Shown here piece by piece: positions 10,727-63,517 of a stretch of DNA of 64,000 nucleotides. The position numbers were made by a program, and so were the translations under genes. Position 1 is the stretch's first letter, and every line of letters starts with the position of its first letter. This stretch comes from an uncultured Gammaproteobacteria bacterium. GTDB taxonomy: Bacteria > Pseudomonadota > Gammaproteobacteria > Xanthomonadales > Rhodanobacteraceae. The DNA is taken from contig CAVYXI010000018.1 in NCBI GenBank assembly GCA_963772435.1, forward strand, positions 607,793 through 671,792. Reading direction: 5' to 3'. Under the pieces are notes generated by a model. That model did not search any database. It saw only the letters and a program-made list of their open reading frames with translations, and had not been told where the DNA came from.

Positions 10727-11047
10727 ATGAACCTCACCCCGCGCGAAAAGGACAAACTGCTCGTCGCGATGGCGGCGCTCGTTGCGCGGCGGCGCCTCGA
10801 GCGCGGCGTCAGGCTCAATCATCCCGAAGCGGTCGCGCTGATCACCGATGCCGTCGTCGAAGGCGCGCGCGACGGACGCAGCGTCGCCGATCTCATGCAG
10901 GCGGGCGCGAAGGTCGTCACCCGTTCGCAGGTCATGGAAGGCGTCGCCGAGATGATCCACGAGATCCAGGTCGAGGCGACGTTCCCGGACGGCACGAAAC
11001 TCGTGACCGTGCATCAGCCGATCAGGCATAACGGAGACGAGGGATGA
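10727..11047 (+). CDS. ureA: urease subunit gamma
   Basis: [39 protein letters not shown]… is the canonical UreA sequence. Confidence 0.95.
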
Positions 11048-11364
11048 CGCCGGGCGAAATCCTCACTGCCGAAGGCGATATTCGCCTCAACGCCGGACGC
11101 GAAGCGGTCACGCTCGCAGTCGCGAACGGCGGCGACCGGCCGATCCAGGTCGGCAGCCACTACCATTTCTTCGAGACCAACCCCGCGCTGCAATTCGATC
11201 GGGCCCGTGCGCGCGGCATGCGCCTCGACATTCCCGCCGGCACCGCGATGCGTTTCGAGCCGGGGCAGACGCGCGAGGCGCGCCTCATCCCTTACGCGGG
11301 CTCGCGTGTCGTCTTCGGCTTCCGCGGCGAAGTGATGGGTGCGCTCGACGCGGAGGCGAAATAG
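11044..11364 (+). CDS. ureB: urease subunit beta
   Basis: [44 protein letters not shown]… is the canonical UreB sequence. The start overlaps the ureA stop by 4 bp. Confidence 0.95.
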
Positions 11365-11366
11365 CG

Positions 11367-36489: not shown

Positions 36490-38142
36490 ATGAGCATGCA
36501 ACACAGCGACGTCTTGATCATGGGTGGCGGCCTCGCGGGCCTCACGCTGGCGATCCAGCTGCGTCGGGAGCTGCCGGCGTTGTCGGTGCGCATCCTCGAA
36601 CGCAATCGCCATCCCGTTCCCGAAGCTGCGTTCAAGGTCGGCGAGTCGAGCGTGGAGATCGGCGCCCACTACTTCGAAACCGTCCTCGGCCTCCGCGCGC
36701 ATCTCGAGGCTGACCAGTTGCGCAAGTTCGGTTTCCGCTTCTTCTTCAACGAAGGCCTCGACGCTCTCGACCAATGCGTCGAACTCGGCACCAGCGAAGT
36801 GTTTCCGACGCCGAGCTACCAGCTCGATCGCGGCATCTTCGAGAACTTCCTCGCCGCGCACGCGGCCGCGCTTGGCGCCGAGTTCGTCGACGGCGCCGTC
36901 GTTCGCCGCATCGATCTCGCTGATGCCGATCAACAGCGGACCGATCAACCGCGAGCCGATCAACAACTGGCCGGTCAGCAACCGAGCGTTCGCGACCACG
37001 TCGTCCACTACGAACACGCCGGCGCCGCGCACACCGCCACCGCGCGCTGGCTGATCGACGCGAGCGGTGGCGCGGGCCTGCTCAAGCGCAAGCTCGGCCT
37101 CGAGGAAAGCAACGGCCACGACGCCAACTCGATCTGGTTCCGCATCGCCGACCGCGTCGCGATCGACGACTGGCACGGCGGCGAATGGGCGCAGCGCTGC
37201 CGACCGCCCGAGCGCTGGCGTTCGACGAATCACCTGTGCGGTCCCGGCTACTGGGCGTGGCTGATTCCGCTGTCGTCGGGCTCGCATTCGGTCGGCATCG
37301 TTGCGGACGCGCAGATGCACCCGCTCGCCACGATCAACACCTTCGACAAGGCGATGGCCTGGTTCGCCGAGCACCAGCCGCAGCTGCATCGCGAGCTCGA
37401 GCCGCGCCGTCATCTGCTGCAGGACTTCGCGTACCAGCGTCACTTCTCGCACGGCTGCAAGCAGGTGTTCTCGGCCCAGCGCTGGGCGATCACCGGCATC
37501 GCGGGCGTGTTCCTCGATCCGTTCTACTCGCCGGGCAGCGACTACATCGCGATCGCCAACACCTACATCGTCGACCTGATCGGCCGCGACGCACGCGGCG
37601 AGCCCTTCGCGCGTCAGGCGCGCGCGTACGAGCGACTCTACTTTTCGTTCTATCAGAACACGCTGCCGCTGTACGAAGGCCAGTACCCGATGTTCGGCCA
37701 CGCCCAGTGGATGCCGATCAAGGTCGTCTGGGACTACGCGTACTACTGGGGCGTGCTCTGCCAGTTCTTCTTCCAGAAGCGGTTGACCGACGTCGCGCTG
37801 TTCGGCAGGCTCGCCGAGCCGCTCGCAGCGTGTGCCGCGCTGAACCGCGACGTGCAGCTGCTGTTGCGCCGGGCCGCCGGCACCGGCGTCGGCGCGGCAT
37901 CGACGGAATTCGTCGATCAGTGCGCGCTGCCGTGGTTCGCCGAGATGAATCGAGGGCTGCGCGACGTCCTCGACGATGCGGCGTTGCAGCGGCGCATCGA
38001 GGACAACGCCGCGATGCTGCACGAACTCGCCGCGCAGATCGGCCAGCGCGTCCGCGCCGAACATCCCGCGGCGCTGCACGGGCTGACTTCGCTCGTCGGT
38101 CTCGAAGCGACGCTCACGCCCGACCTGCTGCACGCGGCTTAG
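36490..38142 (+). CDS. flavin-dependent halogenase family protein (tryptophan-halogenase-like)
   Basis: The FAD motif GGGLAGL is present. Both halogenase signature motifs are present: WxWxIP (GYWAWLIPL) and FxxPxxSxG (FLDPFYSPG). The ORF is intact and encodes about 550 aa. Confidence 0.75.
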   Translation: MSMQHSDVLIMGGGLAGLTLAIQLRRELPALSVRILERNRHPVPEAAFKVGESSVEIGAHYFETVLGLRAHLEADQLRKFGFRFFFNEGLDALDQCVELGTSEVFPTPSYQLDRGIFENFLAAHAAALGAEFVDGAVVRRIDLADADQQRTDQPRADQQLAGQQPSVRDHVVHYEHAGAAHTATARWLIDASGGAGLLKRKLGLEESNGHDANSIWFRIADRVAIDDWHGGEWAQRCRPPERWRSTNHLCGPGYWAWLIPLSSGSHSVGIVADAQMHPLATINTFDKAMAWFAEHQPQLHRELEPRRHLLQDFAYQRHFSHGCKQVFSAQRWAITGIAGVFLDPFYSPGSDYIAIANTYIVDLIGRDARGEPFARQARAYERLYFSFYQNTLPLYEGQYPMFGHAQWMPIKVVWDYAYYWGVLCQFFFQKRLTDVALFGRLAEPLAACAALNRDVQLLLRRAAGTGVGAASTEFVDQCALPWFAEMNRGLRDVLDDAALQRRIEDNAAMLHELAAQIGQRVRAEHPAALHGLTSLVGLEATLTPDLLHAA

Positions 38143-38248
38143 CGCGCGCAGGCGGGGCCGCTCTGTACTTTGGTCGCGTATTGCGCCGCGACCGGATTCG
38201 CTACGCTTCCGCTGCAACAGCCGAGCGCCGAACACCGCGGAGACCACT

Positions 38249-39440
38249 ATGGCAACGCCCATCACGACAATCATGGACCTGCGCGAAATCGCGCGGCGCC
38301 GCGTCCCGCGCGCGTTCTTCGAGTACGCCGACCGCGGCTCGTACGAGGAAGTGACGCTGCGCGACAACCGCGCCGCGTTCGACGACATCCGCCTGCGCCA
38401 GCGCGTGATGATCGACGTCGACAAGCGTTCGCTCGCGACGACCGTCGTCGGCCAGCCGCTGTCGATGCCGCTCGCGATCGCGCCTACCGGTCTCACGGGC
38501 CTGCAGCACGGCAGCGGCGAGATCCTCGCTGCGCGCGCCGCAGCGGCAGCGGGAATTCCGTTTTGCCTCAGCACGATGTCGATCTGTTCGATCGAGCAGG
38601 TGCGCGCGGCGTCGCCGACGCCGTTCTGGTTCCAGGTATACGTCATGCGCGATCGCGGCTTCGTGCGCGAGCTCATCCAGCGCGCGGCGGCCGCGCAGTG
38701 TTCCGCATTGATGCTGACCGCCGACCTCACGGTGCAGGGCCAGCGCCATCGCGAGATCAAGAACGGCCTGTCGGTGCCGCCGAAGATCACGCTGCGCAAT
38801 GTCCTCGACATCGCGACCAAGCCGCGCTGGGCATGGGGCGTGTTGCGCGCGCCGAGTCGCTCGTTCGGCAATCTTGCGGGACGCATCGACAACGCCGACA
38901 CGCTGACGACGCTCGCGCAGTGGATCGCGAAACAGTTCGATCCGACGCTGACCTGGCGCGATCTCGACGTGGATTCGCGAGCTCTGGCCCGGCAAGCTCA
39001 TCGTCAAGGGCATCCTCGACGCGGAAGACGCGCGCATCGCCGCGAATGAAGGGGTCGACGCGATCGTCGTCTCCAATCACGGCGGACGCCAGCTCGACGG
39101 CGCACCCGCAGCGATTCACGCGCTGCCGTACGTCGTCGATGCGGTCGCGGGCAAGACCGAAGTGCTGTTCGACAGCGGCATCACGACCGGGCAGAGTCTG
39201 CTCAAGGCGCTCGCGCTGGGCGCGCGCGCGGGCCTGATCGGCAAGGCGTTCCTCTACGGCCTCGGCGCACTCGGCGAAGCCGGCGTCACCAAGGCGATCG
39301 AGATCATCCGCAAGGAACTCGATGTCAGCATGGCGCTGACCGCGCAATGCGACGCGCGTTCGATTTCGCGCGACATCCTGCTCGAGCGCGACGGCAGCCC
39401 CTATCGGCGAGCGCGGCGCCCGCCCGGCGATTCGACGCCG
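38249..39440 (+). CDS. FMN-dependent alpha-hydroxy acid dehydrogenase (LldD / glycolate-oxidase family); frameshift near 38985
   Basis: The FMN-dependent dehydrogenase family pattern is present (…[25 protein letters not shown]…VVSNHGGRQLDGAPA…). Confidence 0.8.
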
Positions 39441-39462
39441 GCCTGAGCCGACAGCCGTCCTC

Positions 39463-42112: not shown

Positions 42113-45100
42113 TCACGCAGCACGACGCAGCTCCTCGGTCAGCGCGTCGAGGCTCGCGGCCTTCGGCTTGACCAGCCAGAACTTGTGCACGAGGTCGCGG
42201 AAATCATCGAGCAGACGCTTGCCCCAGCGCTGCCGGTCGCGCGCTGGTGCGCGATCAGCAGGTCGCGCAGGTGCTGCCAGTAGTTCTCCATGCCTTCGTG
42301 CGAGATGCGCGTGGATGTCGACGAGTTCGTGGTTGTAGCGGTCGACGAAATCGCGCTCCTCGTCGAGCACGTAGGCGAAGCCGCCGGTCATGCCGGCGCC
42401 GAAATTGACGCCGCTGCGGCCGAGCACGACGACGCATGCCGCCGGTCATGTATTCGCAGCAGTGATCGCCGACGCCTTCGACGACGGCGAGCGCGCCGGA
42501 GTTGCGCACGCCGAAGCGTTCGCCGGCGCGACCCGCCGCGTACAATTCGCCGCCGGTCGCGCCGTACAGGCAGGTGTTGCCGACGATCGACCGCTTCGTG
42601 TCGCGGCGCACGCCGCACCCTGCGGCGGACGCACGACGATGCGTCCGCCCGCCATGCCCTTGCCGACGCCGTCGTTCGCTTCGCCGTCGAGCACGATGTG
42701 CACGCCGCCGGCATTCCACGCGCCGAGACTCTGCCCCGCCGCGCCGTGACAGCTTGCAGCGTGATCGGCTTCGCCGCCATGCCCTGGTCGCCGTGGCGGC
42801 GCGCGACGTCGCCCGAGAGGCGCGCGCCGATCGCGCGGTCGGTGTTCCTGATCGCGTAGTGGAATTCTCCGCCGCTGCCGCTCTCGACCGCCGCCTTCGT
42901 GTCGTCCGCGATGCGCAGCGCGAGCTCGCTGCCGGGAATCGGCGCGCGCGGCACGCACGCGGGCGCCGGCGTCGCTGGACAGCCCGCGTGCCGAGCAGCG
43001 GCGCGAGATCGAGCTTGCCGCTGCTTCACCGTCACGCCGTCGCGACTGCCGCAGCCAGTCGGTGCGGCCGACGATTTCCTCGAGACGACGCACGCCGAGC
43101 TGCGCGAGCAACGCACGCACGTCTTCAGCGACGAAGCGGAAGAAATTCTCGACCTTCTCGGGCGGGCCGACGAAATGCTTGCTTGCGCAGCATCGTCGTT
43201 CTGCGTCGCGACACCGGTCGCGCACGAATTCAGGTGGCAGATGCGCAGATACTTGCAGCCGAGCGCGACCATCGGCGCCGTGCCGAAGCCGAACGATTCG
43301 GCGCCGAGCATCGCCGCCTTGATCACGTCGAGTCCGGTCTTCAGGCCGCCGTCGGTCTGCACGATCACGCGTTCGCGCAGGCCGTTGCGCGCGAGCGTCT
43401 GCTGCGTTTCGGCGAGGCCGAGTTCCCACGGCACGCCGGCGTAGCGGATCGACGTGATCGGGCTCGCGCCGGTGCCGCCGTCGTGGCCGGAGATCGTGAT
43501 GAGGTCTGCATTGGCCTTCGCCACGCCCGCCGCGATCGTGCCGACGCCGGCATGCGCGACGAGCTTGACCGAGACGAGCGCCTGCGGATTGACCTCCTTC
43601 AGGTCGTAGATCAGCTGCGCGAGATCTTCGATCGAATAGATGTCGTGATGCGGCGGCGGCGAAATCAGACCGATACCCGGGCGCGCATAGCGCAGGCGTG
43701 CGATCAGCGCGTTGACCTTGTGCCCGGGCAACTGGCCGCCCTCGCCGGGCTTCGCGCCCTGCGCGATCTTGATCTGCAGCACCTCGGCGTTGACGAGATA
43801 TTCGGGCGTGACGCCGAAACGGCCCGACGCGACCTGCTTGATCTTCGACATCTTCTCGGTGCCGTAGCGCGCCGGGTCTTCGCCGCCCTCGCCGGAGTTG
43901 CTGCGCGCGCCGAGCCGGTTCATCGCCGTCGCCAGCGCTTCGTGCGCTTCGGGCGACAGCGCACCGAGCGACATGCCGGCCGAATCGAAGCGCTTGAGGA
44001 TCGCTTCAGCGGGTTCGACCTCGTCGATCGGGATCGGTGCATGCGGACTCTGCACGTCGAGCAGATCGCGCAGTGCCGCCGGCGCGCGGCCGTTCACCGC
44101 GTCTGCGTAGCTTTCGGTACAATTTCGCACGTCGCGCGTACGTACCGCCATCTGCAGCGAGCCGACGACGGCGGGGTTGTACATGTGGTACTCGCCCTCG
44201 GGCAACGCGCGCAGCAGCCCGCCCGGCGGCAGCGCGTAGTTCGGATCGCGCGCGGCGACGAGACTGCGCGCTTGTACTCGGCCTGGATGTCGGCGAAGCC
44301 GGCGCCGCCGATGCGCGACGGCGTGCCCGGGAAAGCAGAGATCGACCACTTCGCGGTCGAGACCGACGATCTCGAACAGCTGCGCGCCGCGATAGCCGGC
44401 GATCGTCGAGATGCCCATCTTCGAGATGATCTTGAGCAGACCCTTGCTGGATGCCGCGACGGTAGCTGCGGCCGATCTCGCTCGGCGGCTCGCCCTGGCG
44501 ACCCTTGAGCTCGCCGCGGCGGTTCATGTCGAACAGCGTCTGGTACGACAGATACGGATAGACCGCCGTCGCGCCGAAACCGATCAGGCAGGCGAAATGG
44601 TGCGCGTCGCGTGCGTTGCCGGTTTCGACGAGCAGGTTGCAGTCGCAGCGCAGCTGCTTCTGCGTGAGGCGCGCGTGCACGGCGCCGGTCGCGAGCAGCG
44701 CATGGATCGGCAACAGGCCGGGAACCGGGTAGCGGTCGGACAACAGGATGAGCATCGCGCCGCCGCGAACGGCTTCCTCTGCGGCGTCGCAGAGCCGCTC
44801 GATGCGCAGCCTTGAGCCCGACCTTTTCGTCGTAGTAGAGATCGAGCTTGATGTTCGCGTTCGTGATGTTCGGCAGCGCGAGGATCTGGCGCAGCTTGCG
44901 CTGCGACAGAATCGGCGAGTTGAGGAGCACCTGGCTCGCGTTCTCCGGCCACGAGCTCGAACACGTTGCGCTCGAGGCCGATCTGCGTCGACAGCGACAT
45001 CACGAGACGCTCGCGCAGCGGGTCGATCGGCGGATTCGTGACCTGCGCGAACGCCTGGCGGAAGTATTCGTAGAGCGGCCGGGACTGCCGGCGTCATCAC

Positions 45101-46619
45101 CGCGATCGGCGTGTCGTCGCCCATCGAACCGGTCGCCTCGGCCTCGTCCTCGGCGAGCGTCTTCAGCACGACGTCGCGCTCCTCGCGCGTGAGCGCGAAC
45201 TGCTTCTGGTAGCGCGCGAGCGTTTCGGGACTGAACGGCTCGGCCGCGAGTGCCGGGATCGATCAGGTGCGACTCGAGATACGTGAGCTTCTCGCGCAGC
45301 CAGCGCTTGAACGGCGCGCGTGAGCGGTTGATCGCGTCGATCGCGGCCGTGTCGAGCAGCTCGTGTTCGACCAGATCGACCGCGATCATCTCGCCGGGCC
45401 CGAGGCGGCCCTTGGCGACGATGCGCTCGGGCGGCATGTCCCACAATCCGGCTTCCGACGCGACGATGAGTGGTTGTCGTCCGACCGCGCCCAGCGCGCC
45501 GGGCGCAGGCCGTTGCGGTCGAGCGTGCACGCCGCGTGGCGGCGCATCGCAAAGGACGATGCCGGCCGGGCCATCCCACGGCTCGCTGTGCAGCGCGTAG
45601 TATTCGTAGAACGCTTCGAGATCCTCGTCGAGATCCTCGCGCGACGCCCACGCGGGTGGCATGAGGACGCGCATCGCGAGCAGCACGTCGAGACCGCCCG
45701 CAACGAGCACTTCGAGCATGTTGTCGAGGCTCTGCGAATCGGAGCCGGTCAGGCTGACGAGCGAGCCGAGGTCGGACAGTTCCACGAGCGGCGACTTGTA
45801 CTTGCCCGCGCGCGCGGTCGCCCAGTTGCGGTTGGCCTTGATCGTGTTGATCTCGCCGTTGTGCGCGAGCAGGCGAAACGGCTGCGCCAGACGCCAGTGC
45901 GGCATCGTGTTCGTCGAGAAGCGCTGGTGGAATACCGCCGCGCTGACGGCGAGCTCCGCATGGGCCAGATCGGGAAACGCCTCGCGCAGGCGTCCCGGCG
46001 CGACCATCGCCTTCGCAGCGAACGTGCTCGCCGACAGCGTGACGACGTAGAAATGCGCATCGTCGGCCAGCGCCTTCTCGGCGAGGCGGCGCGCGCGGAA
46101 CAGGATGCGATCGAAGCGGGCTTCATCAAAGCGGCTTCATCAGCGCCAGCATCGCCGGCAGGCGCGTTGACGAAGATCTGGGCGATGCGCGGCTGATGGG
46201 CGGCGCCGATCGGCCCGCAGGCGGTCGCGTCGACCGGCACGTCGCGCCAGCCGGCGACCGTGCAGCCGGCGTTCGACGAGTTCGCGCTCGAGCGCGGCCT
46301 GCTGCGCCTTCGCGCGCGCCGCGTCCTTCGGATCGAGAAAGACATGACCCGAGGCGAAATGTGCGCCGACGTCGATGCCGGCCTCGCGCGCGAGCGCGCG
46401 CAGCCAGCCGGTCGGCCGATAGAGCAGGATGCCGCAGCCGTCGCCGGTGATGCCGTCGGCGCCGATGCCGCCGCGATGCGACATCTTGGCGAGCGTCGAG
46501 AACGCCTGGTCGACGACCCAGGCACTGGCCTTGCCATCGATGTTGGCGATGAGACCAAAGCCGCAGCTGTCGTGTTCGAACGACGGATCGTAGAGGCTGT
46601 TCAGACTGCCTTGCGGCAT
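42113..46619 (-). CDS. gltB: glutamate synthase large subunit; many frameshifts
   Basis: The N-terminus is [30 protein letters not shown] (amidotransferase Cys1). FMN/TIM-barrel segments lie in ORFs 45000-46007, 44006-45169 and 42388-44418. The C-terminus …[23 protein letters not shown]… lies at 42113-42427. Confidence 0.85.
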
Positions 46620-49723: not shown

Positions 49724-50802
49724 ATGTCCGCAACCCACTCGAATTCCCAAAATGGCGGCCTGCGCGGTCTGCTCGATACGTTGTGGCGCATCCACACGCA
49801 CGAGCAGAGTGCGGTGCTCGGCGTCGTGATCGCCACGGAGGGATCGACGTATCGCAAGCCGGGTGCGCTCGTGCTGCTCGATCAGACGGGGCTGCGTCAC
49901 GGCGTGATCAGCGGCGGCTGTCTCGAGCCTGCGCTCGAGGACGCGGCGCGCGCCGTGCACGCCAGCGGCAAGGCGAGCAGCGTCGAATTCGATACGCGCA
50001 GCGACGAAGACCTGCTGTTCGGCAGCGGCACGGGCTGCCGCGGCCGCGTGCGCCTGCTGCTGCTGCCATTGCCGCCGCGCGGCGCGCTGACGCGCGCGCT
50101 GTTCGCCGTACTCGAGAAAAGCGTCGCGCTCGAACTGTCGCTCGTCGCCGAAGGCGCCGGGGGCGCCGATGCCGATATTGGCGCCGGCACGGCGGCATTC
50201 GCCGGAGACGGCGCGCCGCAAGCGCACTACGCCTGGGACGCGATGGGCCACGCCGCCAGCACTGTCGCCGCCGCGACGCTGCGCGTGCGCATCGCGCCAC
50301 CGCCGCAATTGTTGCTGCTCGGCGCCGGCCCCGAGACGGGACCGCTCGCCGAGTTCGCGCGCCGGCTCGGCTGGTTCGTCAGCGTCGTCGAGCATCGCGG
50401 ACGCTGGGCCGATTTTGCGCGAGCCGCGCAGGTCGATCGCCTCATCGAGCTCGCTCCCGACGCCGCCGCCACGGAACTCGCGAATGAACGACCCGATGTC
50501 GCGATCGTCATGAGCCACAACTACGCGACTCGACCTCGCCTGGCTGCGGCATTGCGCCGACAGCGACGTGGGCTACATCGGGCTCCTCGGTCCCGCTGCG
50601 CGTCGCGACGCGTTGCTTGCCGAACTCGATGCGCCTCGCCGGCGAGCGCCTGCGCAGCCGCCTGCACGCACCGGTCGGCCTCGATCTCGGCGGCCACGGC
50701 GGCGAAGTCGTGGCCCTGGCCATCGCCGCGGAGCTGCAGCAGCATTTTGCGCGCGCGGGCGCCGCGACGGCCGTCGTCATCGCGTTCGCCGAACATGCCT
50801 GA
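49724..50802 (+). CDS. xdhC: XdhC/CoxI family molybdoenzyme maturation factor; frameshift near 50520
   Basis: The XdhC_CoxI N-terminal domain is …VLGVVIATEGSTYRKPGA…. A Rossmann XdhC_C domain (LLLLGAGPE…) is present. The C-terminal 60 aa are in ORF 50617-50802. Confidence 0.75.
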
Positions 50803-51705: not shown

Positions 51706-52194
51706 ATGAAGCTTTCCGTCAACGGACAAGAACACGATGTGGATGTGACTCCCGACATGCCGCTGCTGTGGGTGCTGCGCGACGTGATCGGACTCACCGG
51801 CACGAAATTCGGCTGCGGCATGGCGCAGTGCGGCGCCTGCACGGTGCATGTCGACGGCGCGGCGATACGTTCGTGCGTGACGCCGGCGGTCGCACTCGCG
51901 GGCAAGCAGATCACGACGATCGAGGGCCTCTCGAAGGACGGCGAGCACCCGGTGCAGCGCGCCTGGATCGAGGCCGATGTCGTGCAATGCGGCTACTGCC
52001 AGTCCGGTCAGGTCATGGCCGCCGCGGCACTGCTCAAGCAGAAACCGGCGCCGACCGACGCCGACATCGACTCCGCGATGAGCGGCAATATCTGCCGCTG
52101 CGGCACCTACCAGCGCATTCGCGCGGGCGTGCACCGCGCGGCCGAATTGATGAAGCAGGCAAGCCTGACCGAGGAGGCGAGCCATGTGGCCTAA
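51706..52194 (+). CDS. (2Fe-2S)-binding small subunit of an aldehyde oxidoreductase / isoquinoline 1-oxidoreductase-type molybdoenzyme
   Basis: Two 2Fe-2S Cys clusters are present ([11 protein letters not shown] and CGYCQSG…CRCGTY). A gagg RBS precedes the start. The ORF is intact. Confidence 0.9.
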
Positions 52195-54449
52195 TCTGAT
52201 CAATCAGGGCAATGTCGACCTCGCCGAAGTGGTCGAGGAACTCGGCAAGACGGTGTCGCTCGATCGCGGATCGGCGCAAGCCGCACCGAACGCCGCGGCG
52301 AATCCACGCCGCGATTTTCTCAAGTCGACCGCGACGATTTCCGCCGGCCTCGTGATCGCCTGCTTCGTGCCGCTCGGCGCGCGCCGCGCGTTCGCCGAAG
52401 CGAAGGGGTCCGACGCGCTGCCGCTGTCGTACCACCGAACGCCTTCGTACGCATCGCGCCCGACAACAGCGTGACCGTGCTGCTCAAGCACTCGGAGATG
52501 GGCCAGGGCGTGTGGACGTCGATTCCGATGGTCGTCGCCGAGGAACTCGACTGCGACTGGTCGAAGGTACAGGTCGAGCACGCACCGGCCGCGCCCGAAT
52601 ACGCGCACACCGCGTTCGGCATCCAGATGACTGGCGGCTCGACGAGCACGTGGGAGTCGTTCGACCAGCTGCGTCAGGCCGGCGCGATGGCGCGCGCGCT
52701 GCTGATCGGGCGGCGGCGCAGAAGTGGAACTGACAAGCCGCCGACTGCCGCACCGAGAATGGTTTCGTCGTCTGCGGCGACGCACCAGGCGAGCTATGGC
52801 GAACTCGCCGAGGCGGCGGCGAAGCTGCCGCTGCCCGGCGATCGTCACGCTCAAGGATCGCGAAGGATTTCCGCGTCATCGGCAAGCCGACGAAGCGGCT
52901 CGACAGCAAGGCCAAGGTCACCGGCAAGGCCGAGTTCGGCATCGACGTGAAGCGGCCGAACATGGTCGTCGCGGTCGTCGCGCGCGCGCCCGTGTTCGGC
53001 GCGAAGGTGAAATCGTTCGACGCGAGCAAGGCCAAGGCCGTCGCGGGCGTCGTCGACGTCGTGCAGGTGCCGACCGGCGTCGCAGTGCTCGGCAAGCACT
53101 TCTGGGCGGCCAAGCAGGGTCGCGATGCGCTCGTGATCGACTGGGACCTCGGCCCCGGCGCCGCGATCTCGACGGCCGCGCTGCGCGATGACTACCGCAA
53201 GCAGGCACAGACGGTCGGCGCGGTCGCGAAGACGGCCGGCGATGTCGACGCGGCGTTCAAAGGGACGGCCAAGGTCATCGAAGCCGAATACGAAGTGCCA
53301 TTCCTCGCGCACGCGCCGATGGAGCCCGAGAACTGCACCGTCGAGATCGGCAAGGACGGCGCGGACATCTACACCGGCACGCAGTTCCAGACCTTCGACC
53401 AGATGCTGTCGGCGAAGATTCTCGGCCTCAAGCCCGAACAGGTGCGCATCCACACGACGTTCCTCGGCGGCGGCTTCGGCCGGCGCGCGAATCCGACCTG
53501 CGACTACGTGACCGAAGCGGTCGAGGTCGCGAAGGCGTCGGGCAAGACCGTGAAGGTGGTCTGGACGCGCGAGGACGACATCCACGGCGGCTACTACCGC
53601 CCGATGTGGCTCTCGCGCGTGCGCGCGACCCTGGGCAAGGACGGCAAGCCCGCGGCGTGGGCGCACTCGATCGTCGGCCAGTCGATCATCGCCGGCACGC
53701 CGTTCGCGCCGATGATGATCAAGGACGGCGTCGACACGACGAGCGTCGAGGGCGCCGCCGACTCGCCGTATCTCGAAAGCGTGCCGGTGCATCGCGTCGA
53801 CCTGCATTCGCCGACGAGTCCGATCTCCGTGCTGTGGTGGCGCTCGGTCGGCCACTCGCATACGGGCTTCGTCGTCGAGAGCTTCGTCGACGAGCTCGCG
53901 CACGCGGCCAGGCAGGATCCGCTCAAGTACCGGCGCGCGCTGCTGCCCGAGAAGTCGCGCGAACGCCTCGCGCTCGACCTCGCCGCCGAGAAGTTCGGCT
54001 GGGGCAAGCCGCTGCCGAAAGGTCACGCGGCCGGCATCGCCGTGCACCAGTCGTTCGGCAGCTATGTCGCGCAGATCGCGGAAGTGTCGGTCGACGACAA
54101 GAAGCAGATCCGCGTGCATCGCGTCGTCTGCGCGATCGACTGCGGCCCGGTCGTCAATCCGCTCACGGTCGAGGCGCAGATGCAGTCAGGCATCGACTTC
54201 GGCCTGTCCGCCGCGCTGCATTCCGAACTGACGTTCAAGGACGGCAAGCCCGAGCAAAGCAATTTCCACAACTACACCGTGCTGCGCCTCAACGAGGCGC
54301 CGCACATCGAGGTGCACATCGTGCCGAGCACCGACAAGATGGGCGGCTGCGGCGAACCCGGCACGCCGCCGATCGCGCCGGCCGTGGCGAATGCGGTGTT
54401 TGCGGCGACGGGGCAGCGGTTGCGGAAGCTGCCTTTGCGGATCGCGTAA
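52184..54449 (+). CDS. molybdopterin-binding large subunit of the same oxidoreductase (IorB-like), Tat signal; about 3 frameshifts
   Basis: The Tat motif is [18 protein letters not shown]. The Mo-pterin dehydrogenase body is in ORFs 52471-52950 and 52947-54449 (…FLGGGFGRR…). Confidence 0.8.
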
Positions 54450-54469
54450 TCGCGAGGAGTCGAACCGTA

Positions 54470-54499
54470 GGTTGGGGTGGGCAAGCGCGAACCCCAACC
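54470..54499. terminator. 9-bp-stem hairpin GGTTGGGGT-N12-ACCCCAACC between the convergent iorB-like and SagB-type dehydrogenase genes
   Basis: This is a perfect inverted repeat read in the sequence, and it separates two convergent genes. There is no T-tract, so it may be a bidirectional or Rho-assisted terminator. Confidence 0.4.
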
Positions 54500-54551
54500 C
54501 TTCGGAACAGCATCGTCCGAGCGGAGCTAGCACGCTCGACTCAACCGGCGA

Positions 54552-55817
54552 TTACTCCGGCTGCGCGACACCGTCAGGCCACACTTTTCGATTCGGATCG
54601 AACTCGAACGTTTCGCACTCGGGTCCGCGGTGACCGAAGCCGACAACGGCAAGCGGACTTTCAACGAGCGGGTCGAGGCCGAAAGCCTGCTCGACGTCGA
54701 TCTCGTTCATCGCTGCCGTGATAAATGCACCCAGACCAAACTCGGTCGCCGAGATGTAGAGCGTTTGCGAGAGGTGTCCCACGTCCAGAATTGCAACGCG
54801 ATAGGCCTTGTTGTGGTTGCGGTATTTCCAGAACGTGCGCGGAAAGCGCGATGCGAGAACGATCATCACCGGCGCGTTCATGTAGTAATGCTGCGCTGCG
54901 ACCATGAGCCGCGCGAGCACTGTTAAGTCGCCATCCTGCGGCGGCGACAGAGGCTCCAGCGCGTGATCGATCGTGTGGTAGTGATATAGCCCCGGCGCGA
55001 TGCCATCGACGCGCTGCACGAGGAGATATGCCTCTGTCGGATGCAGACCGCCGCCGGACGGACTCGTGCGCTTGATGACAACGTTGTCCGCGTGAATTTC
55101 GTATGCCGCCTGCGCGCCGAATACGCGGCGCATGATATGCGAAAAAGTTGCGCTGTCGAGACTCTTCGACGAATCGAAATTGCGGCAGGTCGCACGACGC
55201 GCAAGCAGGTCGTCGATCGCCGTAGGTTCCGTCTGCGGAAGGGCAATGCGCGCCGCAGGCGGCCCGCAATCGAGCACGTGCGATGGCGGCTGACCAAGAC
55301 GCTCGAACAGCTCCGTCATCGAACAAAGGCTTGCATTGATAGTATCTTCGCCGGAAAGAACACCGCGCCAGCGACCGAAGTAATGCGATACCGCAGAGTG
55401 CGCCTGCCAGTTGCCGTCTCGCAATAGGTCATCGCGCGCACGCATATCGGACGATGCTTCGTCGTCGCCTATCAGCAGCCCTTTGGCCAACAAATCACGA
55501 ATCAGTTCCTCGCCGAAGCGCGTTGCGAGGCCATCGAATTCCGTCCAGTGCGCCGCAACCAGATTGCGGAGTAGATTTGCTTCGGCGTCCGTCACACCGA
55601 CTTCCTTGCCCAGATGCGGCGCCAGAGCTAGAAGCTCGATACGCGCATCTAGTCCATCGCCACCATGGGCGAGCGACTCCAAACTGAATTCGAGTTTCTC
55701 GCGAGGCTCGAGAAGCAAGATGGCACAACGTTTTATTCGCACGGGCAGACATTCCGATGACTCGGCGCGCAAGTTTCGCACGATACTGCCCACTGACAGC
55801 TGACTTCGCTTTGGCAT
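54552..55817 (-). CDS. SagB/ThcOx-type FMN dehydrogenase ('putative peptide maturation dehydrogenase')
   Basis: It has the nitroreductase-fold SagB signature [16 protein letters not shown]. The ORF is intact and encodes 421 aa (start MPKRSQLS; MRLSLRAR 42 bp upstream is an alternative). It is divergent from the small precursor-like gene. Confidence 0.8.
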
Positions 55818-56094
55818 TGCGATCTGTCGGCGCACCCGAGCCCGAAGCGACAGCCGCATGCCTTGCTGTGTCCAGGTTGTCGGACAAAGCAATCATCAAG
55901 CAAGTGCACAGGTGCTGACCGATATGCTGCTGGCGACCATGGGCTACCAACCCCACAAACCTCAGGCCAATTAGCAGCGGCTCCGACTCGCCTTGCGGTG
56001 CAAAGTCGATCGGCCATTCCCAAGCAAGTTGTTGCGCGAATCGGCGCTAGGTACACTGCTGGCGCACGCATCGTGCGGCCTCTTTGGGGGATTT

Positions 56095-56361
56095 ATGGCA
56101 GGGACAAAACTGACACCGGATCTGGTCGACAAGCTGCTGGACAAACTCGCGACCGACGATTCGTTTCGCGAAGCGTTCGACAAAGATCCGACTTCTGCGA
56201 TGCATCAAATCGGCGCGCCGAAGGATTTTGATTGCGGGATCTGCACACGACCCGAGCCGATGGCTTCGAAGGAGCAGTTCAGACGTAGCCGCGACGCGTT
56301 CCGTCAAACATTGCTCGGCCAAACCGCACTCAGCGTCTTCACGCTGAAAACGCCGCGATAG
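56095..56361 (+). CDS. 88-aa putative modified-peptide precursor (Nif11/NHLP-like leader)
   Basis: A strong RBS tgggggat precedes the ATG. The leader MAGTKLTPDLVDKLLDKLATDDSFREAFDKDPTSAMHQIGA resembles Nif11/NHLP leaders. The core begins PKDFDCGICTRPEPM…. The gene is flanked by the SagB-type dehydrogenase and the cyclase-TPR gene. Confidence 0.7.
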   Translation: MAGTKLTPDLVDKLLDKLATDDSFREAFDKDPTSAMHQIGAPKDFDCGICTRPEPMASKEQFRRSRDAFRQTLLGQTALSVFTLKTPR

Positions 56362-56371
56362 GCATTGACGA

Positions 56372-59026
56372 TCAAGCTCGGCTCAAAAGGCTTTTGAGCC
56401 GAGCGCCGATGCTGGCGGGCAGCTTTTCCTGTGGCCATGCCGCTTTGAATTGATCGAGTGCTTTGTGCGATTCCTCATCTCGTCCGAGCTTGCGGCTGAT
56501 TTCAGCTGTACGCAGCAACGCGAGATTGGATTCGATTACGTTGCGCGCCTGCAAAAGCTGGGAACTATTCCATTCCAGATATGCGCGCCCGCGGTTCTTG
56601 ACCAGCCAGTTTGCTGACTTCGCCGCGTCTTCGTACCGTCCCGCTGCAGTGTAGGCGTCCGCGAGTGCGACGTGGGTCAGGTACAGTTCGGTGCCATCAA
56701 CTGTCGGCAGGAGCCGTGCAATTGCATCCTGTGGCCTGCCCTCGCGCGAGAATAGCTCGGCTTCGACGATCGCCAGCAGATGCTCCAAGTTCGGAAATCC
56801 GCTTGCGCGGGCCTGCGGTGTCGCGGCCGTCAATGCAGCTTGCGCCGCCGTGTAGTCTTCTGCCCGCGCAAGAAGGTAAGCCCCGTACAACACGGCGAAC
56901 ACGTCGTCGTCATGATTTGTGGCGACTGACTGATCCATCGCTTTGCGCGCATCCGCAGTGAATTCCCGCGCCGCCGCCGCCTGGCGTGAAATCGGTGCGA
57001 AGTAGTCATCGATGCTCAGTTCAATGCCACGTCCAACTAGCGCATATCTGCCCCCGACGCTGACGGCAGCTTTTGCGTAGTCGGCTGCCTTGAGGCGCGC
57101 CACGTCCCAACTGCCTTCGTCGAGGTGCAACGTAACGATCGCTTGCGGCGCCGCCAGATCTGCGGCCGGTATGCCGGAGGCTTTCACTTTTTCGAGCAAC
57201 TGCGCTGCTTCCGCAAATCGGCGCTCGGCAGCAAATGAGTTCGCATGAAAAATTCCCTGTGCAGTATGTCCGAGCGATTCGGCTCTGCGAAAATTCTGCT
57301 GCGCTTCGCCGTATTGACCCATCGCCGCCTGCAATGAAGCGAGCGTATAAAACGCGGAGCCGCGGAAAGGATCGTGTTCGGAAAGTGCAGGACTGATGGC
57401 CTTCGCTGCCTCCTCATACCGGTTCTCGTATTGCCACGAGAAGTTAGCGACGTTGTTTGCCGCCGCGTAGTAGTCGGGATAGAGCTTACCAAGCAGTTGC
57501 CACTTGTCGATCATCGGACCCGGTGGCCCGAAGTTGCTGAGCCAAGCATCGACATAAAGCTGGTCGCGAGGCGAAAGGCGATCCTTGAGGGCCCCCGCCT
57601 TGTGTGCGTACTCGTAGGCAGACGCATCCGCATTGTTGTTTACGTAGACGCGCGCCATGCCCATGTATGCGAGTGCGAAGTTTTCGTCGAGTTCGATCGC
57701 ATGGCGAAAAAGACCGAGCGCATCCGCACTTCTTCCGCCAGCCAGGGCCTGCAGACCCAACGAGTAACTGCGCAACGCATCGAGGTTGGAAGTCGTCACT
57801 TTCGGCAACGGCGCATTGTTCGCCTCAATCGACGCCACCGCTTCGCCAAGCCGGCCACGCAGTTCGCCCGAGACCTTGCCGACCGAAGGAAGAATCGAAT
57901 CGAGTCCGATGCCGTCTGCGGTCCCGGCGTACACGGTTGCCTGCGTATGCGGATCGACCACTTCGGCGGTCACGCGCACGCGACCACCGATTTCGGCCAC
58001 GCTCGGCAGGATGAGTGCGCGCGCGCCTTCGCGTAGCGCGATTTCGTAGCCGATCTCGCGATCGATCTTCGTGCCACCGGGTTTCTGCATGCGCTTGAGC
58101 GCGTCGCTTACCTGCAGGCTCGAAACGAGATTGACGATAGCGCGACTGCTCGAGGCTCGACGCGAAACGCGGTATCCAGCGAGTCGTCGAGCACGCCCTG
58201 GCCGGTCTGGTTTCGCAGGTCGCCGACGACGACCCAGTCGCGTTCGGCAAATGCGATCGCAGGCGGACTGCGCAGCGAGAAATAGGCGGGGACCGCGATC
58301 GCGGTGATCACGACCGCCGCTTCGACGAACAGCATGCCCGGGCGGCGCCACCACGGAATCTCACGGTGAGCCTTGCCGGTCCACGCGGGCGCACGGAACG
58401 GCGCGACGCCTTCCTCGCCGACTTCATGCACCTGCACGGGCTCGGGCACACCCTTGAACCGATAGTTGCCGTGCGCCTGCCAGCGCACGCGCGAATCCAT
58501 TTCGCCCAATTCGGAGCGCGCGCGCTGCGCGAGCGTGCTTGCCATGCCCGAGAGCAGGATCTGGCCGGGCCGCGCGATGCTCATGATGCGCGCGGCCGTC
58601 GGCTTGACGAGGCCTTCGACTTCGACGGGCTTGGCGCCGCGCGCGACGTCGTGCGCGTTGTTGTCCCAGATGACGACGTCGCCGACGTGGATGCCGATGC
58701 GTGCCGCAAGCGGCAGCGATTCGGTTTTGCTCAGCGCACGCAGTTCAGCGCTGGTAGTCGAGCGCGAACGCGACCGCGTGGACCGGTCGCTCGAACAGGA
58801 TCAGGAAGCCATCGGTCTTGTCGATCTCGCGGCCGTGGTGGCGTTCGACGAGGTCGCGGGCGAGACGGTCGTGCTGGCGCATGACTTCGGCACCGCGCTG
58901 GTCGCCGAGCTTCTCGACGAGGGCGGTGCTGTCGGCGAGATCGCAGATCACGAGCGTGCGCAACACGGGCGCAGGCATGGCCCGATCCGGCAGTCCGACT
59001 GGCAGCTCGTTCGCTATCGCGTTCAT
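56372..59026 (-). CDS. class III adenylate/guanylate cyclase domain – TM – TPR fusion protein ('putative peptide modification system cyclase'); 2 frameshifts
   Basis: The N-terminal cyclase domain is VLRTLVICDLADSTALVEKLGDQRGAEVMRQHDRLARDL…GIHVGDVV. A TM segment (MLFVEAAVVITAIAVPAYF) follows. A ~650-aa TPR-rich C-terminus follows that. The protein is split over ORFs 58745-59158, 58108-58584 and 56372-58354. Confidence 0.8.
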
Positions 59027-59284: not shown

Positions 59285-60312
59285 TCAGGCTCGTCCTTCT
59301 AGGAAGCGACGCCACCCGTGCGCCAGGCGTCCCCACCCTCGCCCTTGGCGGCATAGAGTGCGCGGTCGGCCTCGCTGTACCAGGTCGACCAATCGGCACG
59401 TTCGTCGCACAGGTTGGCACCGACGCTGACGGTGAGCGACACCATGTCGTGTGGCGGCGTCAGCTGCAGCGAACGCACTGTGGCCACGATGTTGCGCGGC
59501 GCGTTTGGCGAGTTCGGCGATGTCGTCGAGCTGGACGAGCATCGCGAACTCGTCGCCGCCGAGACGGCAGCAGAGTTCGCAAGTAGCCGACACTGCGGCA
59601 GAGTTCGTCGGCGACCGGCAGAGCGAACGATCGCCGACGAGATGGCCGAACTGGTCGTTGATCGTCTTGAAACGGTCGAGGTCGACGAGGAAGCAGCGCC
59701 AGCCGCGTGCCCGGCCATGCGCTGGTCGGCGAGGTCTTCGAGGAACTGATAGAGGCCGCGACGGTTGGTCAGGCCGGTCAGTTCGTCGGTGCGCACGAGG
59801 TTGTTCGCGTTCGTCAGCATCGTCTGCGTCTGCCGCAGCGAGTGCAGCGTCGAGATGCAGATCTTCGTTGCGACGCTTCAGATTGGCGATCAGCTGTTGC
59901 TCGCTTGCGACGAGGTAGGTGAACGAGCGACGCATGAATTTCGCGAGCAGCAGCGGTTCGCTCGCCAGCAGGTTCTCGAAGCCGGCCTGGTCGATCACGC
60001 GCAGCTGGCTCGTCCGTCGTCGCGATCGCGCTGGCGACGCGCTCGTGGTCGCCGATGAACAGGGCCAGTTCGCCGAGGAATTCGCGTTCGCCGATCAGCT
60101 TCGTGCGAGGCCGTCGCCGAATTCGAGATGGATTTCTGCCGCTCTCGATGACGAACATGCTGCGGCCGAGTTCACCCTTGCGGAAGATGGCTTCACCCGG
60201 CGCGAACGCTGCGCGCCTGTCCGGCGGCGCGGAACAGGTTGAACTCCGCTTCGGAAAGTTGGCGCGGCAGTGTCGTAGCTGCGGCCTTTTCGTCGGGCGT
60301 GTTCGGACGCAT
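59285..60312 (-). CDS. cyclic-nucleotide-binding domain + GGDEF diguanylate cyclase; several frameshifts
   Basis: The cNMP-binding part is …FVIESG…LIGEREFLGELALFIGDHERVASAIATTD. The GGDEF part is …RTDELTGLTNRRGL…CRLGGDEFAMLV…RALYAAKGEGGD. Confidence 0.65.
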
Positions 60313-60594: not shown

Positions 60595-61898
<1,304 letters not shown>

Positions 61899-61976
61899 GC
61901 GGTTCCTTGGACGACGATCGGGGTGAGGGTATGCGCCGCGATACAGCCGCGGCTTTTGGTGCAGGGGAAACGGGTT

Positions 61977-62336
61977 TCAGGTTTCGACGACGGCGCGCGT
62001 CGAGGCAACGTCGGTATAGACCGTTTCAGCGAGCTGGCGAGCCGCCCCGAGCAGGCGCGTGCGCGCGTCGATGCCGGCGGCGGGCAGACGTTCTTCGACG
62101 CTGAGGATCGTCGAATCGAACAGCGCGAAATCGATCGGCCGGCCGTCATCGAGCGCATGACGGTCGTCGGTGAGCCAGGCACGAAGCTGCGCTTGCGCGG
62201 GTTCACTGGTCGCCGCGACCGACCTCGCGAGCAGCGACGCCACGCAGCGATCGACGCAGTCGGTGAATTCGCTGTGCGTGACCGCCGGTGATGGCATCTG
62301 CGCGATGGCCTGCTCGTGGTTCGTTGCCGTGTCCAT
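61977..62336 (-). CDS. hypothetical protein (119 aa) upstream of aceA
   Basis: Its GC3-rich codon usage is consistent with a real gene. No family was recognised. Confidence 0.35.
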   Translation of the reverse strand: MDTATNHEQAIAQMPSPAVTHSEFTDCVDRCVASLLARSVAATSEPAQAQLRAWLTDDRHALDDGRPIDFALFDSTILSVEERLPAAGIDARTRLLGAARQLAETVYTDVASTRAVVET

Positions 62337-62380
62337 ACTCGTATGTATGCTCGGATGCTGCAGAGCAACACTAGGCTCTT

Positions 62381-62490
62381 CAAAGATGTATTTGACAAAC
62401 TGAATGTTTCAATCTAATTATTTGACAATGTCAAATCGTAGTTCAAATTCATTGAATTCAAAACCAATGTCAACGACCACTTGAAAAGAT
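62381..62490. promoter_or_regulatory. AT-rich divergent promoter/operator region between the 61977-62336 gene and the LysR gene, with palindromes TTTGACAaTGTCAAA (62421-62435) and TTGAATTCAA (62452-62461)
   Basis: This is a sharp local GC drop in a ~67% GC background. It contains repeated TTGACA motifs and two palindromes. Confidence 0.5.
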
Positions 62491-63517
62491 CCAAAGTCGG
62501 AACGCGCGAACGAAAGCGCTGCATGCCAAGCGTACGGCGGAAAGGGCGCACGCGGCGCGGCGCCTGCGCGGTTCTACTACAAGGGGAATCGGCTCAAGCA
62601 GCTGCGTGCGTTCTGCTACGCGTCAAATTCGGCAGCGATCGCGCGCGCGGCGGAATCGCTGTTCCTGTCGGCGTCGTCGGTGAGCCTGCAGTTGTCGGCG
62701 CTCGAAATCGAACTCGAGGACGCGCCTGCTCGAACGCACGCGTCCGCGCCTGACGCTGACCCACGAAGGACAGCTGCTCTACGACCTCGCACGCCCGCTC
62801 GTCGAAGGCATGGAGAATCTCGATCAGCAGTTTCGCCAGCAGCGCGGCGGCGTCCAGGGCCGTCGAGGTGCATATCGCCGCGGGTGCATCGACGATCCAG
62901 TACCTGCTGCCGCCGCTGGTGCGCGACTATCGCGAGCGTCATCCCGACGTGCGCCTGCAGCTCGCCAATGTCACCGGCAAGGACGGCCTGGCCTTGCTGC
63001 GGTCGGACGAGGTCGACTTCGCGGTGGGCTCGATGCTCGACGTACCCCACGATCTCGTCTACGAACCGGTGCAATGGTTCGACCCGATGCTGATCCTGCC
63101 GCCCGGACCACGCGCTCGCCGCCAAGACCGAACTATCATCTCGCGGATCTGTCGCCTTACGGACTGATCCTGCCGCCGCAGCGGCTGACGACGTATCGCA
63201 TGATCGATCTCGTCTTCCAGCAGGCGCAAGGTGCCGTATCACGTCGCGATCGAAGTCGGCGGCTGGGAAGTGATCAAGCAGTACGTCGCGATGGGTCTCG
63301 GCATTTCGATCGTCACCGGCATCTGCATCGGCGATCAGCGATTCCGAGCGCCTCGTCGTGCGCAACATGCGCCGCTATTTTCCGCAGCGCAGCTATGGCG
63401 TCGTGATGCGCAAGGGAAAGTACCTGAGTGCGCAGGCGCGCGCATTCATCGATCTCGTCAAGCCGGGGCTGTTCGCGCGCCGCGACTACTACGAGGCGGG
63501 ACATTCGGATCGCTGAA
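62481..63517 (+). CDS. LysR family transcriptional regulator divergent from aceA; multiple frameshifts, start uncertain
   Basis: The HTH is …YKGNRLKQLRAFCYASNSAAIARAAESLFLS…. The substrate-binding domain is …LLPPLVRDYRERHPDVRLQLANVTGKDGLALLRSDEVDFAVG…. These are spread over three frames. Confidence 0.65.

Follow-up and report, generated by a model that had tools for sequence, protein, structure and literature searches.

A conserved peptide gene and SagB-related flavoenzyme gene beside an XC_0250-type receptor guanylate cyclase: a candidate peptide-linked signalling module in a Rhodanobacteraceae genome

Introduction

What might a small leader-bearing peptide, a flavin-dependent dehydrogenase and a membrane-bound nucleotide cyclase do together? 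The question is raised by a locus of an uncultured gammaproteobacterium of the Rhodanobacteraceae (assembly GCA_963772435.1, contig CAVYXI010000018.1, forward-strand positions 607,793 to 671,792); the whole stretch of 64,000 nucleotides (nt) is called the window here, and positions are counted from its first letter. The three genes belong to TIGR04509, TIGR04511 and TIGR04510, a trio listed in the databases under 'putative peptide modification system', for which no function had been proposed. The original prediction, made from the sequence, named these accessions for a three-gene cassette, and all three profiles are passed above their cut-offs. It also described the system as experimentally uncharacterised, which holds only in part, since TIGR04510 includes XC_0250, a characterised guanylate cyclase (PMC3770947). 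Moreover, the three genes do belong together, but a fourth conserved gene, at 59299-60312, was missed. The locus is read here as a four-gene peptide-linked signalling module, in which the dehydrogenated peptide would be the cognate ligand of the receptor cyclase, a reading that is plausible but falls somewhat short of being probable. The four genes are:

56372 to 59026, minus strand: XC_0250-type receptor guanylate cyclase, TIGR04510 (profile match on the frame-corrected protein; frame broken three times in the record)
59299 to 60312, minus strand: gene for a cyclic nucleotide monophosphate (cNMP)-binding and GGDEF diguanylate cyclase of the XC_0249 type, directly upstream of the cyclase gene (motifs; intact orthologues in the related loci L005-L008)
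56095 to 56361, plus strand: Nif11/NHLP-related precursor peptide, TIGR04509, 88 amino acids (aa), of which about 42 aa form the conserved leader and about 45 aa the variable C-terminal half
54552 to 55742, minus strand: SagB-related flavin mononucleotide (FMN) dehydrogenase, TIGR04511, 396 aa from a GTG (profile match, public gene call)

The cyclase and its partner gene

The frame-corrected cyclase scores 926 bits against TIGR04510 (cut-off 400, NCBIfam); as deposited, the gene is split by three 1-nt insertions. Its predicted architecture consists of a cytoplasmic class III cyclase domain, one transmembrane (TM) helix, a periplasmic alpha/beta domain and a solenoid of tetratricopeptide repeats (TPRs). 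Thus, the fusion of cyclase, TM helix and TPR array first described for a protein of about 880 aa is confirmed in its architecture, but not as an open frame of the record.

About 58273 to 58338, minus strand: TM helix of the cyclase
About 56375 to 57784, minus strand: TPR solenoid of the cyclase

In the AlphaFold2 model of an orthologue 74% identical to the window protein (P0001, model confidence pLDDT 85), the cyclase domain spans residues 21-203; a Lys/Arg-rich stretch then leads into a single long TM helix (228-250), after which come the alpha/beta domain (262-396) and the TPR solenoid (413-879). The cyclase domain matches Rv1900c and Ma1120 in Foldseek, with TM-scores of 0.85-0.89. The positive charges on the N-terminal side of the single TM helix are predicted to place the TPR domain outside the cytoplasm.

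As described by An et al. (2013, EMBO J 32:2430; PMC3770947), XC_0250 from Xanthomonas campestris 8004, a protein of 886 aa whose cyclase domain occupies residues 32-191 and whose TPRs come after it, is required for cyclic GMP (cGMP), and its residues 1-220 convert GTP to cGMP, but not ATP to cyclic AMP (cAMP). Substitutions at D41, D71, L73, A150, L157 and A161 abolish the activity. The adjacent XC_0249, which carries cNMP and GGDEF domains, binds cGMP more than 60-fold better than cAMP, and its synthesis of cyclic di-GMP (c-di-GMP) is stimulated by cGMP; both genes affect biofilm formation and virulence, which are controlled in Xanthomonas by the c-di-GMP from this type of enzyme (PMC3770947). 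In the same paper the TPR domain is called 'of uncharacterised function', and no peptide or SagB neighbour is mentioned (PMC3770947).

The cyclase-domain sequence of XC_0250, taken from the supplement of that paper, reaches 396 bits against TIGR04510 positions 1-194, compared to 306 bits for the window's own N-terminus. Both proteins share the family, a length of about 885 aa and the class III cyclase plus TPR architecture, besides most of the residues needed for guanylate cyclase activity; the cyclase domains are only 53% identical, and both window counterparts of the Xanthomonas pair are frame-broken in the record. The essential residues correspond to D42, D72, F74/L75, A151, L158 and A162 of the window protein, with five of six matching. 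At the position aligned to residue 73, a Phe is found in the window and in 94 of 96 family members, and a conserved Leu comes next. In these 96 sequences D42, D72, L75 and A151 are nearly invariant, L158 being kept in 66 and A162 in 88.

The gene directly upstream has at least seven frame changes in the record, with its motifs intact (FLGELALFIGDHERVA, YLVASEQQLI and CRLGGDEF); like XC_0249, it stands next to the cyclase gene and preserves the GGDEF motif and the cyclic-nucleotide pocket. In L005-L008 (loci are cited by such handles), a protein of about 344 aa with cNMP and GGDEF domains is encoded at this position on the same strand in four of four cases, and the orthologues conserve the GGDEF motif together with the Glu and Arg of the phosphate-binding cassette. 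The best Protein Data Bank (PDB) match of this protein is 5H5O, the 129-aa cNMP domain of a 'diguanylate cyclase' (98 bits), which is suspected to be that of XC_0249; the structure code given in PMC3770947, 4KG1, is not among its PDB matches. A short reading frame or fragment resembling the C-terminal end of a GGDEF domain lies between the cNMP-GGDEF gene and the cyclase gene in L005 (9587-9817) and in the window (about 59323-59469), which may be a duplication remnant.

Because TIGR04510 contains XC_0250, and the gene pairs with that of an XC_0249-type diguanylate cyclase, the protein is most likely a signalling enzyme, a guanylate cyclase of the XC_0250 type, rather than an actor in the peptide chemistry, as the original prediction had implied by counting it in a peptide-modification cassette. 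By analogy with the homologues, it is highly likely that the cyclase makes cGMP and that cGMP drives the synthesis of c-di-GMP by its neighbour.

Conservation of the four-gene locus

A scan of genome collections with the dehydrogenase gave matches in Rudaea and Pseudolysobacter metagenome-assembled genomes (MAGs), while homologues of the cyclase led to L005 (complete genome of Pseudolysobacter antarcticus), L006 (metagenome contig), L007 (a duplicate of L006) and L008 (nanopore MAG). Compared to L006/L007, the cyclase is 74% and the peptide 84% identical. Long-range synteny extends from the window to all four, more partially in L008, with the shared order ComM, XdhC, MobA-like, 2Fe-2S subunit, Mo-subunit, the SagB, peptide and cyclase genes, cNMP-GGDEF, isocitrate lyase and LysR. 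The genomic context is therefore Rhodanobacteraceae-like (Rudaea/Pseudolysobacter synteny), and not that of Burkholderia.

A metagenome scan seeded with the cyclase alignment added 79 loci, annotated with hidden Markov models (HMMs) from the intact ones; the counts given here refer to 81 non-redundant loci (87 in all). Downstream of the cyclase gene, 64 of 65 loci have the peptide gene, and 49 of 52 have the SagB-like gene; the order is cyclase, peptide on the opposite strand and SagB-like gene, so that the three-gene neighbourhood is conserved, as predicted. A full-length orthologue of the cNMP-GGDEF gene precedes the first cyclase gene in 46 of the 55 loci with enough upstream sequence; some of the loci lacking it are contigs beginning inside a second triad. 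The flanks vary, comprising at least eight upstream and at least ten downstream gene clusters, and no transporter, protease, YcaO or other further gene is conserved with the module in the non-redundant set. Among the cassette neighbours and the 20 largest other reading frames of the window, no YcaO, radical-SAM enzyme, lanthipeptide synthetase or ABC exporter was found, which agrees with the original reading of the window.

In three loci without an upstream GGDEF gene (L047 5393-6172, L057 2771-3550 and L064 3024-4034), the gene before the first cyclase gene falls into a single conserved cluster, whose members of about 260-330 aa match nothing in Pfam. PADLOC returned only weak similarity of the cNMP domain to Pycsar models and indicated no known defence system.

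The peptide

The 88-aa peptide scores 65 bits against TIGR04509 (cut-off 34, NCBIfam) and 29.8 bits against the related model NF038399, below its cut-off of 40, and has no Pfam match. The predicted reading frame and its strong ribosome-binding site are both upheld, with a GGGGGA site just 5' of the ATG, and an identical 88-aa call exists in a public protein collection (P0121). Differences from the L006 orthologue are distributed 12/4/39 by codon position; therefore, the frame is translated and under purifying selection, which answers the doubt on whether so small a frame is translated. A word-indexed database gave only seven relatives, an exhaustive profile search being needed to size the family, which then amounted to 422 clusters at 50% identity, all of about 82-120 aa; the family alignment comprises 91 sequences.

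Three regions can be recognised in the peptide: a Nif11-like conserved N-terminus of about 42 residues, a mostly conserved C-L-x-P-x-x-L-A-x-K motif and a variable amphipathic tail. The core contains one or two Cys, being otherwise charged and helical, and is not rich in Cys, Ser or Thr. Between paralogous peptides of the same locus, the leaders are 29-89% identical, compared to 7-58% for the C-terminal halves, a split that, as read from the alignments, is the usual pattern of precursors of peptides that are made on the ribosome and modified after translation (RiPPs). Among known precursors, those with NHLP/Nif11 leaders (proteusins and prochlorosins) share the Nif11-type helical N-terminal leader, better conserved than the C-terminal part. 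Unlike them, the present peptide lacks both a double-glycine site in register and a linked ABC exporter with a peptidase domain, and its core is long and moderately conserved in pattern.

Two peptide genes stand beside one cyclase gene in L006 (13134-13442), L003 (6147-6506), L040, L053, L068 and L072, which resembles RiPP clusters with multiple precursors. In L040 and L053, the leaders of such pairs are 84-89% identical and the C-terminal halves 38-50%, the gap being smaller in the other loci of this kind.

The peptide and cyclase genes are convergent, with 10 bp between their stop codons, exactly as first reported; in close relatives, they overlap by 4 nt instead. The junction carries one further element:

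56376 to 56404, no strand: perfect palindrome with 14-nt arms and a 1-nt centre at the convergent junction, predicted to fold with a 13-bp stem

It lies 15 nt past the peptide stop codon, within the final 11 codons of the cyclase gene, and is unique in the window. It has no U-tract and is not called a terminator; it may be a transcript-end or stability element.

The SagB-related enzyme

The dehydrogenase scores 484 bits against TIGR04511 (cut-off 240, NCBIfam), covering the whole profile (1-380), and 81 bits against Pfam Nitroreductase, and includes a TIGR03605 (SagB) domain of 121 bits; in NCBIfam, TIGR04511 is a family apart from SagB proteins that match TIGR03605 only. The PSGGGLHP motif reported originally is found in the minus-strand frame ending at 54552. 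This end, the motif and the family stand, whereas the ATG at 55817 is most likely not the start: the public collection holds an exact copy of 396 aa and all orthologues have 394-396 aa, which points to a GTG at 55742. Consequently, the divergent region shared with the peptide gene measures about 352 bp instead of the 280 bp first estimated.

55743 to 56094, no strand: divergent spacer between the dehydrogenase and peptide genes, about 352 bp with the corrected start (sequence read)

This spacer gave no match to the sigma-70 consensus and none in Rfam.

Two domains compose the enzyme, an N-terminal domain that may resemble the RiPP recognition element (RRE) and a catalytic domain of the nitroreductase fold. 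The former is predicted as strands followed by three helices (pLDDT about 90), where a PqqD-like RRE would have three strands and three helices, and a Pfam scan of the N-terminal 110 residues of six SagB-like proteins gave no match. The top solved structure by sequence is ThcOx/CyaGox. The Arg residues of the FMN site, the PSGG motif and the Lys-Tyr motif (FWKY, as in ThcOx) align with solved structures, so that the FMN-binding residues, whose loss would have spoken against the assignment, are kept.

In comparison with known azoline oxidases and their family, namely ThcOx/CyaGox (5LQ4), McbC (6GOS), BmdC (7LY4) and TIGR03605, the nitroreductase fold, the FMN-site residues and the Lys-Tyr motif are common, and an N-terminal extension, maybe RRE-like, is shared with ThcOx. 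Unlike these oxidases, the present enzyme has no partner cyclodehydratase and forms its own HMM family; in addition, the linked core is not Cys/Ser/Thr-rich, and an azoline made in cis cannot be the substrate. The view that classical azole chemistry is unlikely here is strengthened by the 81 loci, in which neither YcaO nor another partner is conserved.

Co-variation of the TPR domain, the peptide and the enzyme

The evidence for a link between the peptide and the receptor comes from comparisons between gene copies and between triads. Two or more cyclase copies occur in 17 loci; most of these have cyclase-peptide-SagB triads in tandem, preceded by only one GGDEF gene. Identities between the paralogues of two-triad loci differ strongly by region:

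Cyclase domain: 64-90% identity
Juxtamembrane part: 50-96% identity
TPR domain: 22-40% identity
SagB N-terminal domain: 31-45% identity
SagB catalytic domain: 51-63% identity

In L057, one SagB gene is shared by two cyclase-peptide pairs, whose cyclase domains are 90% and TPR domains 30% identical. Across 59 triads, the identity of the TPR domain correlates with that of the peptide and SagB (Spearman 0.54-0.66), whereas the identity of the cyclase domain hardly does (-0.03 to 0.20). The TPR domain, the peptide gene and the enzyme gene duplicate and diverge as a set, which the catalytic domain does not join. Read most simply, these alignments would make a specificity unit of the three, with the cyclase domain as the common output to one cGMP receptor.

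Second triads with no second GGDEF gene were recorded in L020 (6941-15736), L021, L026, L029, L033, L058, L074, L076, L079, L084 and L087. The peptides of second copies are a distinct type lacking Cys (V-P-A-V-R-S-L-P-S).

A related arrangement is seen in an actinobacterial variant, a Gaiellaceae MAG (L004 126-5229), where a TIGR04511 dehydrogenase is encoded beside a soluble cyclase-AAA-TPR protein of 1207 aa that has the canonical adenylate-cyclase residues and no TM helix, with a Nif11-like frame between both genes on the same strand. The combination of a cyclase and TPR sensor with a SagB-like enzyme is thus a theme recurring in a different topology. Cyclase-TPR fusions beside SagB-type enzymes are also known from the kinase/cyclase fusions of TIGR03903, named for systems of thiazole/oxazole-modified microcins (TOMMs), and from cyclase-ATPase-TPR (STAND-type) proteins near RiPP genes; those proteins are soluble and carry an AAA/STAND ATPase, unlike the window cyclase, with its one TM helix, predicted periplasmic TPR domain and no ATPase. 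As an analogy only, and with no homology claimed, in the RRNPP family (Rap, NprR, PlcR and PrgX) a TPR solenoid is the specificity receptor for a linked small peptide, and receptor-peptide pairs duplicate and diverge together, as in the present module. However, the RRNPP receptors are cytoplasmic, bind short unmodified peptides that are re-imported, and act on transcription or through phosphatase activity instead of a nucleotide cyclase.

Proposed mechanism

A mechanism in four steps can be proposed for the module. Firstly, the membrane receptor guanylate cyclase of about 883 aa would make cGMP through its cytoplasmic class III domain, and secondly, the XC_0249-type protein would bind cGMP and then make more c-di-GMP, both as shown for the homologues. 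Thirdly, the 88-aa Nif11-like peptide would be the substrate of the SagB-related flavoenzyme, whose RRE-like domain would grip the conserved leader while an FMN-dependent dehydrogenation (about -2 Da) takes place in the variable C-terminal half; no azole would be formed, because there is no cyclodehydratase. This third step is favoured on balance. In the fourth and weakest step, proposed tentatively, the processed peptide would enter the periplasm through an exporter encoded elsewhere and act as the cognate ligand of the highly variable TPR domain, giving an autocrine or cell-cell signal running from the peptide to cGMP and then c-di-GMP. It is possible, though on the doubtful side, that the input signal long sought for receptor guanylate cyclases of the XC_0250 type is a ribosomally made peptide which a SagB-type flavoenzyme, standing alone, has dehydrogenated.

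Several points weigh against this mechanism. The main weakness is the route of the peptide to the predicted periplasmic TPR domain, for neither an exporter nor a leader peptidase accompanies the module as a conserved gene across the non-redundant set; likewise, the family alignment shows neither a signal sequence nor a double-glycine site in register, since the conserved G-(V/A/I)-P is out of register with such a motif. No target residue for the enzyme can be named, the Cys of the C-L-x-P motif being near-conserved and not invariant. On the signalling side, the Asn-Glu pair of XC_0249 that contacts guanine is Ser-Glu in the window clade (YLVASEQQLI versus VVNNEQLLI). About 9 of 55 loci have no GGDEF gene upstream, and a search of these for an alternative cNMP effector gave only unrelated genes or genes with no Pfam match. 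The XC_0250/XC_0249 biochemistry comes from one paper (PMC3770947), for which no independent replication was found in the literature searched. In addition, none of the 87 loci belongs to Xanthomonas proper, because the back-translated scan patterns do not match the XC_0250 sequence, and the conserved peptide/SagB neighbourhood is stated for loci outside that genus. Finally, the triad correlation uses non-independent pairs, and it could also have arisen if the cyclase domain underwent gene conversion after an old duplication.

The literature searches gave no correction or retraction notice for PMC3770947, nothing relevant on the TIGR accessions, the NCBIfam product names or combinations of SagB, NHLP, adenylate cyclase and TPR, and no paper linking the peptide and SagB genes to the XC_0250/XC_0249 pathway.

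Regarding leader removal, the window contains at 4101-8843 a pair of neighbouring genes for M16 (insulinase/PqqL-like) peptidases, one of 505 aa and the other of 1064 aa. M16 proteases process some RiPP leaders; these genes lie about 48 kb from the cassette and are unlinked to it in related loci.

Alternative explanations

The locus could instead be a conventional RiPP cluster, in which SagB and the peptide yield some bioactive product for secretion, antimicrobial or of another kind, and the cyclase and GGDEF proteins only regulate its production or answer an unrelated periplasmic cue, so that the peptide is no TPR ligand. The conserved leader and variable core are classic for RiPPs, the enzyme is most like the azoline oxidases of RiPP and nonribosomal peptide synthetase (NRPS) pathways, the components are named as RiPP parts in NCBIfam, and regulators are often found in such clusters. 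A regulator of this kind leaves unexplained, however, why the cyclase gene is duplicated with each peptide while one GGDEF gene serves all, and why only the TPR part diverges between paralogues; moreover, a conserved exporter, immunity gene and protease are all missing, and the core, with its length of about 45 aa and helical character, is not rich in Cys, Ser or Thr. This explanation is judged unlikely.

Another view would keep the peptide and the flavoenzyme inside the cell, for example as a redox- or flavin-linked sensor pair modulating the cyclase from its cytoplasmic side, with the peptide acting as a small regulatory protein that undergoes neither export nor cleavage. This would agree with the absence of a signal peptide, cleavage motif and transporter, with the conservation of the whole length of 82-120 aa across 422 clusters and with the soluble protein of L004, where sensing must be cytoplasmic as there is no TM helix. 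However, it is the predicted periplasmic TPR domain that co-varies with the peptide in proteobacteria, and not the cytoplasmic cyclase domain, and the single TM helix with positive charges on its N-terminal side puts the TPR domain outside. An intracellular role is therefore seen as distinctly improbable.

A different doubt concerns the record, as the frameshifts could be real and the module here a decaying pseudogene cluster, non-functional in this organism. The straight translation of the cyclase stops after codon 93, and the open-reading-frame list contains only a 660-aa frame at 56372-58354. The breaks are located as follows:

58747, minus strand: frameshift 1, an extra T between the Arg93 and Glu94 codons (DNA alignment with intact orthologues)
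58137 to 58158, minus strand: frameshifts 2 and 3, with one surplus G at 58158 and one surplus base within 58137-58139 (orthologue alignments)

The last two bracket six codons (SLEQSR) read in a third frame, the frame order relative to the intact Rudaea orthologue being -1, -2, (-3), -1. None of the three insertions sits in a homopolymer, which, together with the seven or more changes in the GGDEF gene, would suit real decay. The public record carries the breaks as well: the public protein collection includes a C-terminal cyclase fragment of 572 aa, 100% identical, from a 1,306,085-bp NCBI/ENA contig, and the frame defect is therefore in the deposited record.

Against decay, neighbouring and housekeeping genes are broken too. 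Compared to intact orthologues, XdhC has two frame changes, the large subunit of the Mo-hydroxylase two, isocitrate lyase at least one and the LysR regulator at least three, which, with those of the cyclase and GGDEF genes, makes at least 18 in about 14 kb, housekeeping genes being among those affected; farther off, the genes for an FMN-dependent dehydrogenase and glutamate synthase are also split. Besides, of the 130 family positions with at least 95% conservation among 95 relatives, 128 are unchanged in the repaired cyclase and the other two have conservative changes, while intact relatives lose 1.4 of them on average. The out-of-frame segments have no internal stops and are 71-78% identical to the closest orthologue, and orthologues are intact in every related locus examined. 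Since neighbours and housekeeping genes are broken and the conserved residues are kept, the three cyclase frameshifts are most likely sequencing or assembly errors in an indel-rich assembly, and gene decay is very unlikely. Programmed frameshifting was also considered and rejected, as there are three shifts in the same direction, two of them about 20 nt apart, and neighbouring genes are equally broken.

Finally, a cryptic TOMM, in which azolines would be installed on the peptide by a distant YcaO cyclodehydratase and turned into azoles by the SagB-like enzyme, can hardly be credited. In its favour, the enzyme keeps the Lys-Tyr motif and the FMN site known from azoline oxidases, such oxidases lead its structural matches and Cys is common in the core. 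Against it, no YcaO is found in the scanned regions of the window or as a conserved neighbour in the 81 loci, the Cys is not invariant in a core that is not rich in Cys, Ser or Thr, and TIGR04511 is separate from TIGR03605-only SagB proteins.

Surrounding sequence of the window

Besides the cyclase gene, the genes that are split in comparison with intact orthologues or Pfam profiles are located at 38087-39446, 42388-46136 and 49724-50751 (FMN-dependent dehydrogenase, glutamate synthase large subunit and XdhC, respectively) and at 52184-54449, 60595-62398 and 62542-63510 (Mo-hydroxylase large subunit, isocitrate lyase and LysR regulator). Urease genes (UreD and the urease alpha subunit) are found at 9608-13079, where the alpha-subunit frame has an N-terminal extension of more than 120 codons, probably a frame artefact fusing an upstream subunit gene. 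The record looks indel-rich throughout, and readings of the window based on open reading frames need frame-aware checks.

The part encoding SagB, the peptide and the TPR domain (54000-58000) has 59-61% G+C, compared to about 66% for the window, and scores poorly on the window's own codon-usage model. This composition could reflect a horizontal origin or be specific to the family.

Conclusions

Worked examples of bacterial cGMP signalling are very few, and no work on the signal for the TPR domain of XC_0250 later than the 2013 paper was found in the literature searched. The locus of the window itself adds a member to a family already catalogued, and its record comes from an assembly rich in indels. 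At the level of the family, the TIGR trio and the XC_0250/XC_0249 pathway are probably parts of one module, a link that can be tested, and a known signalling pathway probably receives, through the peptide and its flavin enzyme, an input so far overlooked. The locus also suggests that a SagB-type enzyme can carry out chemistry other than azole formation. If the proposed mechanism is true, it would define a route in Gram-negative bacteria from a peptide to cGMP and then to c-di-GMP, where TPR domains, peptides and tailoring enzymes would diversify jointly into private channels, converging on one cGMP-activated diguanylate cyclase.

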